From contig CAZHAK010000002.1 in the NCBI GenBank assembly GCA_964530625.1, forward strand, positions 106,756 through 170,755: a stretch of 64,000 nucleotides of DNA, given 5' to 3'. The notes below the pieces were generated by a model that worked only from the letters and a program-made list of their open reading frames with translations, made no database searches and was not told the origin of the DNA. The number at the start of each line of letters is the position of its first letter. Position 1 is the stretch's first letter. The translations under genes and the position numbers were made by a program. Positions 1-64,000 of this stretch are shown in pieces. Source of the DNA: an uncultured Alphaproteobacteria bacterium (GTDB lineage Bacteria > Electryoneota > RPQS01).

Positions 1-1012
1 AGCACTTGAGAACATGGGTGTGCCGGCTTTTGCGGACTCGCGATTGCGGAATCTGCGGATGATACGCGACTATGCTCCGAAGATGAGTACGTGGTATCTG
101 CGATTGCCACACTTCTCGGCCATTGGGCGGATTGTTTCGATGTCTGAAGTCAGTTTGAACAGCGAGGAAGAGCTCATCGTCGCGTTGAATGCCGAGGCGG
201 CTCGCCAGAACAAGATTCACGGCATCATCGTGATGATTGAAGTCGGTGATTTGCGCGAAGGGATTTTGCCCGGTCACTTGGTTCAGTTTTACGAGAACAT
301 TTTCCAGCTTCCCAATGTCCGGGTGCTGGGTATAGGCGCCAACATCGGGTGCTTGTCGGGTTCGGTTCCGAATCCTGAGCAGTTTATGCAGTTGGCGATG
401 TACCACGAGCTCTTAGAGCTCAAGTTCAAGAAGAAGCTGCCGTTTATCTCCGCAGGAGCATCGAGTGCGTTGCCGCTTTTGCTTGAGGGGGGGTTGCCAG
501 CGGGAATCAACCATTTCAGAATCGGTGAAGCGGTGTTTTTGGGAACGGATTTGGTGCGCGGAGGAATCCTGCCCGGGTTGCGCGGTGACGCGATCACACT
601 TGAGGCGGAAGTCGTAGAAATCAAGGAGAAGAGTTTAATCGCGATGGGCGATACGAGTTTGATCACTCCGTTTGAATCGAGTTTTGAGCAGCCGGACGTG
701 GAAGGCTCGGCCAGCAGAAGGGGGTATCGTGCCATTGTGTCCGTCGGACAATTGGATACGGACGTCGGGGGATTAGTGCCGCGGAATCCGCAATTCAAGA
801 TTGCGGGCGCGTCGAGCGACGTGACGGTTTTGAATGTCGGCGAAGAGGATGCGGGAGTGAGGTTGGGCGACGTCGTGAAATTCGATGTCAACTATTCCGC
901 GCTGGTGAGATTGATGAACAATACTTATACTGACCGTGTGCTGTTGCCGGAAACGGAAGCTGAGAAGAAAGCGGTTGCGCAAACGGAGGCTACGAAGTTA
1001 GCCACAGCGTAG
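1..1012 (+). CDS. alanine/ornithine racemase-family PLP-dependent enzyme, 5'-truncated at window edge
   Basis: ORF open to window start (first Met at 14). Translation shows alanine-racemase-like barrel segment (GIIVMIEVGDLREG) and C-terminal beta domain. Hairpin terminator follows. Confidence 0.5.
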   Translation, partial: ALENMGVPAFADSRLRNLRMIRDYAPKMSTWYLRLPHFSAIGRIVSMSEVSLNSEEELIVALNAEAARQNKIHGIIVMIEVGDLREGILPGHLVQFYENIFQLPNVRVLGIGANIGCLSGSVPNPEQFMQLAMYHELLELKFKKKLPFISAGASSALPLLLEGGLPAGINHFRIGEAVFLGTDLVRGGILPGLRGDAITLEAEVVEIKEKSLIAMGDTSLITPFESSFEQPDVEGSASRRGYRAIVSVGQLDTDVGGLVPRNPQFKIAGASSDVTVLNVGEEDAGVRLGDVVKFDVNYSALVRLMNNTYTDRVLLPETEAEKKAVAQTEATKLATA

Positions 1013-3484: not shown

Positions 3485-4297
3485 CTATGCGGAAAGGGGA
3501 TGATCAATGGCATCCCGTAATGACGTGACAAATTCGCGCGTGAATCTTCGCGCATGCTCAAGTGTCTTAGATTCTCCAATGCCGTCCAACAGCGCGCTTC
3601 CGACAATGACACCGTCTGAAACAGAAGCCAGCGTGCGCGCGGACTCTGGTGACGAGACTCCGAATCCCGAGAGAAAGGGAGTGGTGAGTGTAGCTTTCAG
3701 AGCGGATAGGTAACGCTTGACGTCGGGATCCAACGAGGTTCTCGCACCGGTTACTCCGGTAACGGCTACGGCGTAGATGAAGGGCGCATCGAGTAGATCA
3801 ATTTGGGCGATGCGGTCGGCGCTGGACGTCGGCGCAAGAAACGGAACTCGCGGAAGATTCATGTTCTTTGCTTGTGTTTCAATCTCGAGAAACTCGTTGC
3901 TATGCACGGGCCACTCAGGGAGGATGAGTCCGCACAGATTTGCAGTCTTCGCACTTGCGAGAAACTCATGAGTTCCTGTCACGCTGTTTAAGTAACCCAT
4001 GAAAACAGTTGGGCCGAGTGCACTGGCTTGCGCGGCAAGATTGAAGTAATCTTCAGAGGTTAATCCGTTATCGAGGACGAGTTGCGACGCCGCTTGAATC
4101 GTCGGGCCGTCGGCCAGGGGATCAGAGAAGGGCATTCCCAACTCGAGAAAGTCCGCTCCGCCGGCAAAAATTTCTTGACACAGCGAGACGGTCCACTCTC
4201 GCTTGGGAAAACCGCAGGTGAGATAAATCGCGAGCAGCTTCCGTGATTGGCTCTTCGCGTCGCGGATCAACTTGTAAAGATCAGAGGTGCGCGCCAT
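3485..4297 (-). CDS. trpA: tryptophan synthase alpha chain
   Basis: [17 protein letters not shown] motif. Start at Met aligning to E. coli TrpA N-terminus; longer ORF to 4360. Confidence 0.85.
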
Positions 4298-46956: not shown

Positions 46957-47029
<73 letters not shown>

Positions 47030-47149
47030 CCGCGCGGCGACCACCGGTACCAGCGATGAAAAGGAGTTCCTTGTTTTGCGCACCACGCTGTTTTATGACA
47101 CCACATTTGACTCCCAGTGCAGCGTGGGCAGGGAAATGCAGTTCGATCA

Positions 47150-47181
47150 GGGTGTGCGGACCGGTTTTCGCGCACCCTTTT
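47150..47181 (+). terminator. rho-independent terminator of tRNA transcript
   Basis: GGGTGTGCGG..CGCGCACCC + TTTT. Confidence 0.6.
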
Positions 47182-47227
47182 CTCGTTTAATAGGCACATT
47201 CACAGTTTTTAGATAGGCAAAGAAGAA

Positions 47228-47971
47228 GTGATCATTCAGGATGCGACGCCGGAACAGATTCGCAGCGCACTAAAGGCGCTGTCAGAGATTCAAGAAATTG
47301 ATTTAGAGTTAGCGGAAATAGCCGAGGAACGGGGTGGACTGCCCGAGAAGGTCCAGGCCTTGACCGACCGGATAGCCGAGTACGAGATCTTTATAGAAAC
47401 CAAGGATCATGAGCGAGTGGATTCGGAGAAGATATCCGGCGAAACCGGGCACAAACTTGCCGTGGCTCGAGAGAAGCTGACGAAATATCAGGAACAGCTC
47501 TATGCGGTGAAGACGACGCGGGAATACGACGCAATAACGACCGAGCAGGAGACAGCCAAGCGGGAAATCGGCGAATTCGAATTGCTGATCTCCACAAATA
47601 CGACTCGCGCGGTTGAACTCTTGCAACTTGTGGAAGAGAAGCAAGCTGAGCTTGAGCAGCTTCGCAAGGACAAAATCGCCAGCGAGGCAGAGCTTGAGAA
47701 AAAGTTGCGCGACACGGAAGGCGAAGAGAAGGAACTGCTCGCTCGCCGGGCTATCGCCGCAGCCGTGCTAAACCCCCGCTTGTTGGTTCACTATGAGCGC
47801 ATTCGCGACGCCAAGGACGGCCGGGGTATTGCTACCTTAGTCGGCGAAGCCTGCGGCGGCTGTTTCGCTTTGATTCCACCTCAGACGCAAGTGATTATCA
47901 AGCAGTCGCGCGATATTTACGCCTGCGAAGCATGCGGCAGATTCATCGCTCCCGACTCCGAAATCAACTAA
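47228..47971 (+). CDS. COG1579/DUF164 zinc-ribbon coiled-coil protein
   Basis: Long coiled coil plus C-terminal CGGC...CEACG ribbon. Confidence 0.7.
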   Translation: MIIQDATPEQIRSALKALSEIQEIDLELAEIAEERGGLPEKVQALTDRIAEYEIFIETKDHERVDSEKISGETGHKLAVAREKLTKYQEQLYAVKTTREYDAITTEQETAKREIGEFELLISTNTTRAVELLQLVEEKQAELEQLRKDKIASEAELEKKLRDTEGEEKELLARRAIAAAVLNPRLLVHYERIRDAKDGRGIATLVGEACGGCFALIPPQTQVIIKQSRDIYACEACGRFIAPDSEIN

Positions 47972-48403
47972 TTGGAACTTCTCGCGCACATTGACGGCGG
48001 CGCACGCGGCAATCCCGGACCGGCGGCGATTGGAGTCGTGATTCACGATGACAAGGGCAACCTTCTTTATGAAGAAGGTACCTTTATCGGTCACGGGACG
48101 AACAACGAAGCCGAGTACAAAGCGCTGATCAGATTACTCGAAGTTTGCGCGACGGATCCGGTCATACAAGCAAGCGGCGCGAGTATATTGCGCGTAGCCT
48201 GTGACAGCCTGCTGGTCGTCAATCAGGTTTTAGGGGAGTGGAAGATTAAAGAACCCCGCCTGCAAGAACTGAACGCCGAAGTCCAGCAAAAAAAAGCGAT
48301 ACTGAATGGCCTGACTCCCAGAATCCGCCACGTCCGCAGGGAAGAGAATAAGGATGCGGATAAGTTGGTGAATCGGGCGTTGGATGAGGCGGAGAAAGCG
48401 TAG
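47972..48403 (+). CDS. rnhA: ribonuclease HI
   Basis: DGGARGNPGPAA, TNNEAEY motifs. Confidence 0.85.
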   Translation: MELLAHIDGGARGNPGPAAIGVVIHDDKGNLLYEEGTFIGHGTNNEAEYKALIRLLEVCATDPVIQASGASILRVACDSLLVVNQVLGEWKIKEPRLQELNAEVQQKKAILNGLTPRIRHVRREENKDADKLVNRALDEAEKA

Positions 48404-48417
48404 TTAGAATTGTTTGC

Positions 48418-48860
48418 GGTTCGCCGGGTGATCGCGGTTGACTTCGGTCAATCGAGGAAAGTCCGAACTTCATAGAGCAGAGCGCCGGCTAACGGCCGGG
48501 TGTGGTGACGCAACGGAAAGTGCCACAGAAAATATACCGCCGGGGGAAAGTCAGAAATCTGAAGTCAGAAGTCAGAATGCAGAGTCTGCTTACTTCATAC
48601 TTCATACTTCATATTTCATACTTCTGACTTTTCTCCGGTAAGGGTGAAATGGTGCGGTAAGAGCGCACCGCGCATTCAGTAATGGATGTGGCAGGGAAAA
48701 CCCCGCTCGAAGCAAGGCCAAGTATGTCGGGAGTCTTTGCTGCTCGCAAAGCTAAAGTCCCGGCGGGTAGGCCGCCCGAGGTGATGAGTAATCATCATCC
48801 CAGATAGATGATCACCCCTCTGGCAACGGAGGACAGAATTCGGCTTATAGGCGAACCCAC
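48418..48860 (+). ncRNA. rnpB: RNase P RNA, bacterial type A, with expanded P12
   Basis: GAGGAAAGTCCG (P4), GGTAAGGGTGAAATGGTGCGGTAAGAGCGCACCGC, ACAGAATTCGGCTTAT. P1 pairing GGTTCGCC/GGCGAACC. P3 hairpin GTTGACttcgGTCAATC. Confidence 0.8.
48546..48633 (+). repeat. heptamer-tandem-repeat palindromic element inside rnpB P12 (GAAGTCA x2 ... ACTTCAT x5)
   Basis: Tandem 7-mers; arms GAAAGTCAGAA/TTCTGACTTTTC close the helix. Confidence 0.5.
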
Positions 48861-48865
48861 AATTT

Positions 48866-48944
48866 AAGTATGAAGAATGAAGTCAGAAGTATGAAAACGT
48901 GCTTTCTGACTTCAGACTTCAGACTTCAGATTTCTGACTTTTTT
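48866..48944 (+). repeat. inverted related copy of the P12 element, 5 nt downstream of rnpB 3' end
   Basis: Its reverse complement shares identical 20-nt (AAAGTCAGAAATCTGAAGTC) and 17-nt (TTTCATACTTCTGACTT) blocks with the P12 element. Ends in T6. Confidence 0.5.
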
Positions 48945-48990
48945 GCACCCCCCAATAAGTTTTTTGTTTATATGAAATACAGGAAGAGCC

Positions 48991-62860: not shown

Positions 62861-63193
62861 TTGACTGTCATGATTGTTACGACCACCCCGACTGTCGAAG
62901 GCCGCAAGGCGGAAGCTTATCTTGGCATTGTTGCCGGAGAAGCGATTGTTGGCGCGAATATATTCAAAGATATCTTTGCCGGAATCCGCGACATCGTCGG
63001 CGGCCGCAGCGAGGCCTACGAAAAGGAACTCCGCAAAGCTCGCGAGATCGCCATCCAGGAACTCGGCGAAAATGCCCAGAAGCTGGGCGCGAATGCTGTC
63101 GTCGGAGTTGACCTCGATTACGAAGTCATCGGTTCTGGCGGCTCGATGCTGATGGTCTCAGCCTCCGGCACCGCCGTCAAACTCTCCGTCTAA
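62861..63193 (+). CDS. YbjQ/DUF74 family protein
   Basis: 110 aa, MIVTTT...[13 protein letters not shown] pattern. Confidence 0.65.
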
Positions 63194-63241
63194 TTTTTCC
63201 AGGTATTATACCTCTTACCTCTAACCTCATACCTTATCGAT

Positions 63242-64000
63242 ATGGATCACCTCCTTTCCGAACAGCACCTCGAAGTAAAAAAAGCGATACGCGAATTTGC
63301 CGAAAAAGAGATTGCGCCGACAGTCGCGATTCGCGACGAGCATAGTGAATTTGCGACAGATATTATCAAGAAGATCGGCGAATTAGGGTTTATGGGGGTG
63401 AATACACCGGAAGAGTTGGGCGGCTCTGGCATGGATACGGTCACGTATGCCATTGTCATTGAAGAGCTGTCCCGCGTTGACCCGTCCGTCGGTGTTATTG
63501 TCTCCGTGAACAATTCGTTGGTCTGTTATCCGCTACAGAAATTCGGCAATGCGGATCAGCACAAACGTTATCTTAAGCCACTTGCTGAAGGCAAATTGCT
63601 TGGCGCATTCTGTCTGACCGAGCCGGGCGCGGGTTCCGATGTGTCGGGCCTGACGATGGCCGCGATTAAGGACGGAGATGATTATATTCTGACGGGTGAA
63701 AAAGCGTTTATCACCAACGGCCTGATGTCGGACACTTATATCGTCATGGCCCGCACGGACAAAGAAAACAGGACCAAGGGAATCAGCGCCTTCATTGTGG
63801 ATGCGACGATGCCCGGCTTCAAACGCGGCCCCAACGAAAAGAAAATGGGCATCCGCTCGTCGGATTGCTGCATGATAATTCTGGAAGAGTGCCGTGTTCC
63901 CAAGGCAAATTTGCTGGGCAAAGAAGGCGACGGCTTCAAAGTCGCGATGACGGCGCTCGACAGCGGTCGCATCGGAATAGCAGCTCAAGCGGTGGGTCTC
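63242..64000 (+). CDS. acyl-CoA dehydrogenase (butyryl-CoA dehydrogenase-like), 3'-truncated at window edge
   Basis: Not in ORF track (no stop before window end). Manual translation from ATG 63242 gives MDHLLSEQHLEVKKAIREFAEKEIAP... Confidence 0.8.
   Translation, partial: MDHLLSEQHLEVKKAIREFAEKEIAPTVAIRDEHSEFATDIIKKIGELGFMGVNTPEELGGSGMDTVTYAIVIEELSRVDPSVGVIVSVNNSLVCYPLQKFGNADQHKRYLKPLAEGKLLGAFCLTEPGAGSDVSGLTMAAIKDGDDYILTGEKAFITNGLMSDTYIVMARTDKENRTKGISAFIVDATMPGFKRGPNEKKMGIRSSDCCMIILEECRVPKANLLGKEGDGFKVAMTALDSGRIGIAAQAVGL

Follow-up and report, generated by a model that had tools for sequence, protein, structure and literature searches.

The 64-kb stretch of DNA analysed here, referred to as the window, contains an rnpB gene, which encodes the RNA of ribonuclease P (RNase P), with an unusually built helix P12. 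The tip of this helix is occupied by a long hairpin of degenerate heptamer repeats, and a second hairpin of the same heptamer family, called the trailer below, lies in inverted orientation directly downstream of the gene. We regard it as probable that a slippage-prone heptamer hairpin is tolerated in the dispensable tip of P12, and that its inverted twin serves as the terminator of rnpB. The features of the locus are collected in Table 1; related loci from other genomes are designated by L numbers.

The gene was identified with cmscan. It matches the RNase P RNA model RF00010 of Rfam over model positions 1-367 with 307.8 bits, compared with a gathering score of 100 (E = 8e-100). The P4 strands GAGGAAAGTCC and ACAGAATTCGGCTTA are present in the gene, are aligned with high posterior probability and are kept in all relatives. 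The covariance alignment puts an insertion of 79 nt (48548-48626, forward strand) into the apical loop of P12, behind model position 136 and ahead of 137. A first-pass annotation made from the sequence alone had put the repeats inside P12 of rnpB, and the alignment agrees with it. For the P12 region a single long hairpin is predicted (-42.7 kcal/mol, z = -6.9 compared with shuffled sequences). The whole P12 helix forms a single rod of -40.1 kcal/mol (z = -6.6), in which the first 20 pairs are uninterrupted and the self-match at lag 7 is 0.64. Tandem Repeats Finder (TRF) reports an array of 4.9 copies of TACTTCA in the 3′ arm (48591-48624). The repeat counts annotated initially were correct for GAAGTCA, which is present in two exact copies; ACTTCAT, counted five times, occurs three times exactly and reaches five only with the variants ATTTCAT and ACTTCTG. 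When one mismatch is allowed, ACTTCNNACTTC has 14 matches, compared with 3.9 ± 1.8 in shuffled sequences, and 12 of the 14 lie inside 48554-48934. An open reading frame (ORF) at 48438-48641 inside rnpB is a mechanical one and was not taken as a gene.

Table 1. Features of the rnpB locus in the window (positions are those of the window)
Feature	Position	Strand	Basis or remark
rnpB, RNase P RNA class A	48416-48863	+	cmscan RF00010, full model 1-367
P1 3′ strand GGCGAACC	48850-48857	+	closes the RNase P RNA
Whole P12 helix, 101 nt	48538-48638	+	anchored extraction and comparison with relatives
P12 5′ arm heptamer array, AAGTCAG/GAAGTCA type, 4.3 copies	48548-48577	+	TRF; lag-7 scan
P12 apical loop region TGCAGAGTCTGCT	48578-48590	+	sequence comparison; fold
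P12 3′ arm heptamer array, TACTTCA/ACTTCAT type, about 5 copies, terminal CTGACTTTT	48591-48632	+	TRF; direct repeat family D1
Trailer hairpin, same heptamer family as the P12 insert	48866-48941	+	inverted repeats I1, I5, I6, I12; fold
Trailer 5′ arm, GAAGTAT/GAAGTCA	48866-48896	+	
Trailer loop	~48897-48902	+	
Trailer 3′ arm, GACTTCA/TGACTTC	48903-48941	+	
U6 run at the foot of the trailer hairpin	48939-48944	+	sequence; likely intrinsic termination point
Possible -10 box TAGAAT	48405-48410	+	6-8 nt upstream of the rnpB 5′ end; putative, read by eye
Weak -35 candidate TTGGAT	48380-48385	+	19-nt spacer to TAGAAT

Repeats can mislead assemblers, and the contig of one relative, L005, breaks inside its trailer hairpin. 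An assembly or chimera artefact in this repeat-rich region is nevertheless hardly conceivable. Three independent assemblies, one from the Joint Genome Institute (JGI) and two from Logan, which come from different samples and pipelines, agree in all of the 575 nt between 48416 and 48990, and analogous structures are found in nine other genomes.

The 76-nt trailer also folds as a long hairpin (-31.6 kcal/mol, z = -7.0 compared with shuffled sequences), and TRF reports in it an array of 5.3 copies of TTCAGAC (48904-48940). The trailer begins 8 nt past the P1 3′ strand, not 5 nt as annotated at first; the six T residues at its end were annotated correctly. With a stable hairpin placed directly 3′ of the gene and then U6, it has the composition of an intrinsic terminator, and it is likely that the trailer hairpin and the U6 run act as the intrinsic terminator of rnpB. 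The trailer resembles the intrinsic terminators of stable RNA genes in being a strong hairpin directly past the gene with a U run behind it. It differs from them in its very long stem (about 30 pairs with periodic mismatches), which is A+U-rich and built from tandem repeats, and in its complementarity to an internal helix of the very gene that it would terminate. The rnpB precursor of Escherichia coli likewise has a terminator hairpin, which is later trimmed off. Heptamer hairpins were also considered as the usual terminators of this genome. This was rejected: tRNA-Met ends in an ordinary G+C-rich hairpin (47149-47178), and the ~72 kb surveyed contain no more than four lag-7 segments.

The P12 insert and the trailer share two identical blocks in inverted orientation, one of 20 nt (48547-48566 and 48922-48941) and one of 17 nt (48614-48630 and 48880-48896). 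Both blocks had been noticed in the first-pass annotation and proved to be exact. The best match between the two elements in a blastn-short search of the window is also inverted and covers 27 nt at 96% (E = 7e-8). Each hairpin is imperfect, with about five pairs followed by two mismatches per heptamer, and the complementarity of its own arms is 76-77%. The 5′ arm of P12, by comparison, shares 89-96% identity with the reverse complement of the trailer 3′ arm, and the 3′ arm of P12 shares 87% identity, with 17 nt exact, with the reverse complement of the trailer 5′ arm. Matches in direct orientation are lower (77-82%). That an arm matches the opposite element better than its own partner would be explained by the inverted duplication or conversion of one imperfect hairpin. 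An inverted copy of the P12 insert is the most fitting description of the trailer.

The excess of cross-complementarity over self-complementarity would also be expected from a functional long-range pairing. The trailer arms would then pair with the P12 arms in the primary transcript, so that the ribozyme is held as an inactive precursor, or a long duplex is offered for processing, until the trailer is removed. In the minimum free energy (MFE) structure of the 531-nt precursor, the P12 arms do pair with the trailer arms. It joins rnpB to the trailer by 67 pairs, and its energy is 7.9 kcal/mol lower than the sum for rnpB and the trailer folded singly. Taken as an isolated pair, P12 and the trailer cofold at -91.2 kcal/mol, compared with -68.5 kcal/mol as separate hairpins. 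The suggestion, made initially, that the trailer is a pairing partner of P12 therefore holds as a prediction for this species, but not beyond it. The precursor folds of six relatives with a long P12 contain no cross pairs between rnpB and the trailer, and a conserved P12-trailer pairing was rejected on this ground. Inverted duplication of an imperfect hairpin gives the same cross-pairing pattern without selection. No obvious loop-loop complementarity was seen that could seed a kissing interaction, and the long-range fold is incompatible with P1 unless a pseudoknot forms. Since the pairing is not conserved, and since P12 leads the trailer by about 300 nt in transcription and can fold in the meantime, the predicted duplex is treated as a by-product. 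A function of the duplex in the precursor is very unlikely.

Relatives were gathered via RecJ homologues and via a pattern of the rnpB core over GTDB species genomes, and Rfam set the limits of rnpB in all of them. The comparison set consists of 16 distinct rnpB genes, the one in the window included. Ten of the 16 have a long, repeat-built P12 of 89-153 nt. Its length is 101 nt in the window, 95 in L015, 111 in L017, 153 in L019, 99 in L021, 100 in L024, 102 in L025, 89 in L029, 99 in L030 and 104 in L031. A short P12 of 12 nt (CGCC-CGCAAG/CGAAAG-GG) is present in each of L004, L007, L013, L026 and L027; it measures 14 nt in L032 and 19 nt in L009. L023 has a P12 of intermediate length, 58 nt, without repeats. 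Of the 16 distinct genes, five have a P12 of 12-19 nt and one has the P12 of 58 nt. The expansion of P12 that had been annotated from the window is confirmed, its 101 nt being set against 12-19 nt in the relatives with a short P12.

Every long P12 forms a single rod (z from -4 to -12). The same-base match of the long P12 helices is 0.46-0.64 at lag 7, compared with about 0.2-0.4 at other lags; in L019 the peak is at lag 8 instead. The 153-nt P12 of L019 consists of octamer repeats (GACAGTCC) with a lag-8 self-match of 0.56, and the trailer of the same locus consists of heptamers (AAATTGA). Nearly all units of the 5′ arm begin with GAA: the unit is GAAGTCA in the window, GAAATAT in L029, GAAGGAT in L024, GAAATTA in L021 and GAAACTT in L015 and L031. 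Long and short forms of P12 are interspersed on both the rnpB-core tree and the RecJ tree. Loci with a short P12 share 93% (L004), 92% (L032), 91% (L026) and 90% (L007) RecJ identity with the window, and loci with a long P12 share 92% (L030) and 89% (L029). Where L004, L007, L026 and L027 have the tip CGCAAG, the window has about 95 nt instead, and close relatives with a 12-nt P12 retain an otherwise near-identical rnpB core. L030 and L032 are sisters (100% bootstrap) with rnpB cores that are about 97% identical, and they differ cleanly at the P12 tip. On either side of rnpB, the adjoining sequence of one sister is unrelated to that of the other; both borders of the gene are rearrangement break points. 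By the sequences compared, the P12 repeat rod is a fast-changing trait of the clade.

A heptamer array is found 3′ of rnpB in 12 of the 16 genes. The full trailer hairpin is present in the window, L004, L007, L009, L013, L019, L029 and L030, and a one-armed array is present in L015, L017, L021 and L024. A heptamer trailer occurs in eight of the ten genomes with a long P12 and in four of the six with a short or intermediate one; these are counts only, and they show no clear association. The best match of the P12 in the window is its own trailer, with a score of 34 in inverted and 24 in direct orientation and at most 22 elsewhere. The P12 of L024 matches the trailers of L017 and L021 (score 28), and the P12 of L021 matches those of L007, L030 and L013 (24-26). 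An exact 24-mer of the GGATGAA-type array (GAAGGCGGAAGGATGAAGGATGAA) is also present at intergenic sites other than rnpB in L017, L019, L025 and L031. This indicates that the arrays belong to a dispersed pool common to the clade and are not private to rnpB.

Matches between the P12 inserts and the trailers of other lineages, together with the identical 24-mer at several intergenic sites of four related genomes, would also be left behind by an active mobile hairpin. Such a hairpin, similar to a miniature inverted-repeat transposable element (MITE) or a repetitive extragenic palindromic (REP) sequence, would transpose as a unit, would have landed in the P12 tip and 3′ of rnpB, and would move between sites and lineages. 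The two inverted copies of the 24-mer that flank a small gene in L019, the clean replacement of the P12 tip between L030 and L032 and the wide occurrence of heptamer arrays of the same type in metagenomes are consistent with it. No further copy of the 80-90 nt element, which the first-pass annotation had considered as possibly multicopy, was found in the window or in the 8 kb beyond it, which together make up about 72 kb of this genome; blastn-short gave no match with E < 0.2 outside 48545-48944 in the window. At the locus itself neither defined terminal repeats nor a target-site duplication or a transposase could be seen, and the P12 junctions (CGCC/GG...CC/GG) carry no recognisable target duplication. 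The repeat units differ among close relatives, as slippage and turnover in place predict, and none of the 120 metagenome arrays listed lies inside rnpB. We consider an active mobile hairpin rather unlikely.

The first-pass annotation had offered, as one of its readings, a palindromic repeat or MITE family that invaded a dispensable helix and also serves as terminator. This reading came closest to the evidence. Heptamer hairpins are found in the P12 helices, trailers and intergenic sites of relatives, close relatives exist without the P12 extension, and the trailer combines a hairpin with U6. The MITE part of the same reading has against it that no second copy of the element was found in the ~72 kb.

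Further arrangements of the arrays were seen in individual relatives. In L019 the 24-mer GAAGGCGGAAGGATGAAGGATGAA has inverted copies at 221-244 (forward) and 619-642 (reverse), which flank a segment of about 375 nt and could form an enclosing stem. This segment sits where L013 has a gene of the 23S_rRNA_IVP family (PF05635). In L017 inverted copies of the 24-mer (61-84, reverse, and 2283-2306, forward) surround a 2.2-kb unit with an RNase H-like gene, two ORFs and rnpB. In L025 the rnpB 3′ end recurs (AGAATTCGGCTTATCGGCGGATTCGAGG) about 950 nt further downstream, with a GGATGAA array (1661-1684, reverse) behind it. The duplication resembles a 950-nt insertion that duplicates the end of rnpB, as integrative elements do at tRNA and tmRNA genes. 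The L005 contig encodes the same RecJ protein as L004 and has no rnpB upstream of it; only the 3′ arm of the trailer is kept (3926-3949, reverse), which points to a rearrangement or assembly break point within the hairpin. A nucleotidyltransferase/HEPN gene pair of the toxin-antitoxin type lies between the RNase H-like gene and rnpB in L007 (1906-2587) and L009 (2106-2787) and is absent from the window.

A scan for lag-7 segments in the ~72 kb found four, three at rnpB and one at 63209, and none in shuffled sequences. The array at 63209-63236 (forward strand), TACCTCT TACCTCT AACCTCA TACCTTA, is one-armed, pyrimidine-rich and similar to an anti-Shine-Dalgarno sequence (ACCTC). Its place is a 49-nt spacer that follows a YbjQ-like gene with its stop at 63193 and precedes an acyl-CoA dehydrogenase gene with its ATG at 63243; the array is also present in L153 and L154. 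Metagenomes were scanned with the pattern ACTTCWKACTTCWKACTTC, which describes three ACTTC[AT][GT] units. At least 120 loci were found, on contigs with a G+C content of 0.32-0.70, and such arrays are widespread in metagenomes. The rnpB core was present in none of the 120 matches listed (L033-L152). Among the matches listed, the hairpin arrays with a partner arm within 130 nt have the purine-rich arm on the 5′ side in 29 cases and on the 3′ side in one. This asymmetry is independent of the strand that is read.

We propose that the GNRA-capped tip of P12 was replaced by a rod of about 95 nt made of degenerate heptamers, with GAA-N4 units in the 5′ arm and N4-UUC units in the 3′ arm. The rod would be a passively tolerated extension of a peripheral helix that is dispensable in relatives and would not be needed for catalysis; it is presumably dispensable in this organism as well. 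The trailer hairpin would act both as intrinsic terminator and as the 3′-end stem of the rnpB transcript. The insert and the trailer would be related through inverted duplication or conversion of one imperfect hairpin. The copying most likely ran from the trailer to P12, since among near relatives it is the trailer hairpin that is shared more widely. The arrays would arise and turn over by replication slippage together with copying between sites, which would be why the two positions hold different heptamers in related genomes and in some of them none. In favour of the proposal, both differences between the stems of L013 and L014, as read from the sequences, preserve pairing through G-U, which fits selection on this strand at the RNA level.

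Several observations weigh against this proposal. Arrays are rare in the ~72 kb of this genome and three of the four lag-7 segments are at rnpB, so that slippage acting genome-wide would not by itself explain the hot spot. The trailer was not called by a consensus terminator scan, which requires at least three G-C pairs and a loop of 3-8 nt; the scan missed it because its stem is poor in G+C. The short form of P12 is not a simple deletion of the long one, as CGCAAG is swapped for GGRRGAAA...YYCC, and for the gain and loss of the rod repeated insertion and recombinational exchange of alleles are equally possible. The long rods are fairly uniform, with 89-111 nt in nine of the ten. They have a common base, GGRRGAAA..., and often the apical motif GCAGAG, and the GAA phase is preserved between lineages. 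Pure neutrality does not explain the uniform length, the common base and apical motifs and the GAA phase, which could mean selection for a function. GCAGAG occurs at the P12 tip in the window, L024 and L029 and in the trailer loop in L007, and GCAGAA is found in the trailer loop of L030.

The uniform rod length and the conserved GAA phase are what would be expected of a protein-binding or processing module, which the first-pass annotation had offered as its third reading. The GAA/UUC rod would then be recognised by RNase III or by a heptamer-binding protein of the cold-shock type, which would lead to a split or regulated RNase P RNA. The first 20 pairs of the rod are continuous, the rod takes the place of a tetraloop as rRNA intervening sequences do, and the purine-rich arm is almost always on the 5′ side among the metagenome hairpins listed. 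CspB has been reported to bind heptamer repeats with one protein per heptamer (PMC4679880). The closest relatives, however, do without the rod in the same gene neighbourhood, the unit sequences vary widely apart from GAA, and the repeat insertions in P12 of cyanobacteria are reportedly dispensable for activity in vitro. Such a module is quite unlikely. We also see little chance, and slightly less still, for a precursor device, in which RNase III would cut the duplex of about 67 pairs or the P12 rod of about 40 bp, as it does with rRNA intervening sequences and processing stems, so that maturation would require removal of the trailer or the enzyme would act as a split RNA. If this were true, the dimorphism of long and short P12 across the clade would be kept because the rod is functional. 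A slippage-prone hairpin that is tolerated in P12 remains the explanation that we prefer.

The genes in the upstream part of the locus (46957-48403) and beyond follow the order tRNA-Met, Zn-ribbon protein (PF02591), RNase H-like protein (PF13456), rnpB and recJ. This order is preserved clade-wide, down to 66-69% RecJ identity. The gap between the stop codon of the RNase H-like gene and rnpB is 12 nt. It follows that the rnpB promoter overlaps the end of the RNase H-like gene or that the two genes are co-transcribed. The -10 candidate TAGAAT before rnpB (Table 1) would suit a transcription start near 48416-48418; it was not called by a consensus promoter scan. A conserved stretch precedes recJ in the window (48946-48990) and in L004, L007, L009, L026, L029 and L030. 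It consists of a C-rich run, GTTTTTTGTTTATATGAAATACAGGAA and an ATG; it may be the promoter or leader of recJ, with TTTG motifs similar to those of Bacteroidetes-type promoters. The best named relatives of RecJ are Calditrichota/Calditrichaeota and KSB1 metagenome-assembled genomes. Judged by these relatives, the host is an uncultured Calditrichota/KSB1-like bacterium, from that part of the Fibrobacteres-Chlorobi-Bacteroidetes (FCB) group, and not a cyanobacterium.

Lengthening of P12 by tandem repeats has a precedent in cyanobacteria. In 1997 Vioque reportedly described sequences of the short tandemly repeated repetitive (STRR) type that lengthen P12 of rnpB in heterocyst-forming species. These insertions are said not to be needed for activity in vitro, and their invasion is said to be recent and independent, with close strains carrying unrelated STRR sequences. 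P12 is described as dispensable in cyanobacteria, with reference to Vioque 1997 (Nucleic Acids Res 25:3471), in PMC2858038. The literature search returned no report of tandem repeats in P12 of rnpB outside cyanobacteria. The case described here shares with the cyanobacterial one the lengthening of P12 of a class A RNase P RNA by heptanucleotide tandem repeats, a presumably dispensable helix and the presence of unrelated repeats, or of none, in close relatives: the units of the window, L029 and L030 differ, and L030 and L032 differ at the P12 tip. It differs in its host, which is Calditrichota/KSB1-like and not a heterocyst-forming cyanobacterium, and in its units, which are of the type GAA-N4 (GAAGTCA, GAAGTAT) and not the STRR units reported for cyanobacteria. 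The arrays are rare here (four segments in ~72 kb), and the trailer consists of a twin hairpin that belongs to the same family and repeats the insert in inverted orientation. It is an STRR-like expansion of P12 in another phylum, with other repeat units and with a twin hairpin, the probable terminator, in addition.

Heptamer arrays are also known from intergenic regions. Heptameric repeats are over-represented among the simple repeats of bacteria, an excess for which polymerase slippage is the cause suggested (PMC4692102). The same source describes three heptanucleotide repeats in Calothrix PCC 7601 and, for Xanthomonas and Nostoc, repeats of GGGAATC and of GGGGA(T/C)T, respectively. TAACTGA repeats are common to Beggiatoaceae, Cyanobacteria and Bacteroidetes, and the ability of CspB to bind heptamer repeats is described in the same source (PMC4679880). 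In Geobacter metallireducens, five MTYCTGA repeats stand in tandem at each of 15 sites (PMC2700814), a consensus that is fitted by CTTCTGA, the reverse complement of the unit in the P12 5′ arm. The arrays of Geobacter, Beggiatoaceae, Xanthomonas and Nostoc share with those described here the period of seven, the three to six units and, in some cases, the arrangement as inverted stem-loop pairs. They lie between or near protein genes, with at most a proposed regulatory function, whereas the arrays at rnpB lie inside a catalytic RNA and in its probable terminator. The intervening sequences of 23S rRNA, which are excised by RNase III, also turn the tetraloop-capped tip of an essential RNA into a stem-loop of about 100 nt that is absent in close relatives. 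The P12 insert has no ORF, and the resemblance is architectural only. The 23S_rRNA_IVP-like gene in L019 is flanked by heptamer arrays, which may be a coincidence.

The finding has consequences for annotation. Long P12 insertions can split covariance-model matches to rnpB or lower their scores, and repeat hairpins beside the gene are break points for assembly. For the biology of RNase P RNA, it means that the invasion of P12 by heptamer repeats is not peculiar to cyanobacteria but recurs in an unrelated, uncultured lineage. Since half of the genomes sampled in this lineage have a repeat rod of about 100 nt, and since sister genomes differ there, P12 is a natural landing site within an essential ribozyme. 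A source of the inserted sequence is suggested by its link to the probable terminator hairpin of the gene, and the clade is suited to asking how heptamer arrays arise and spread.

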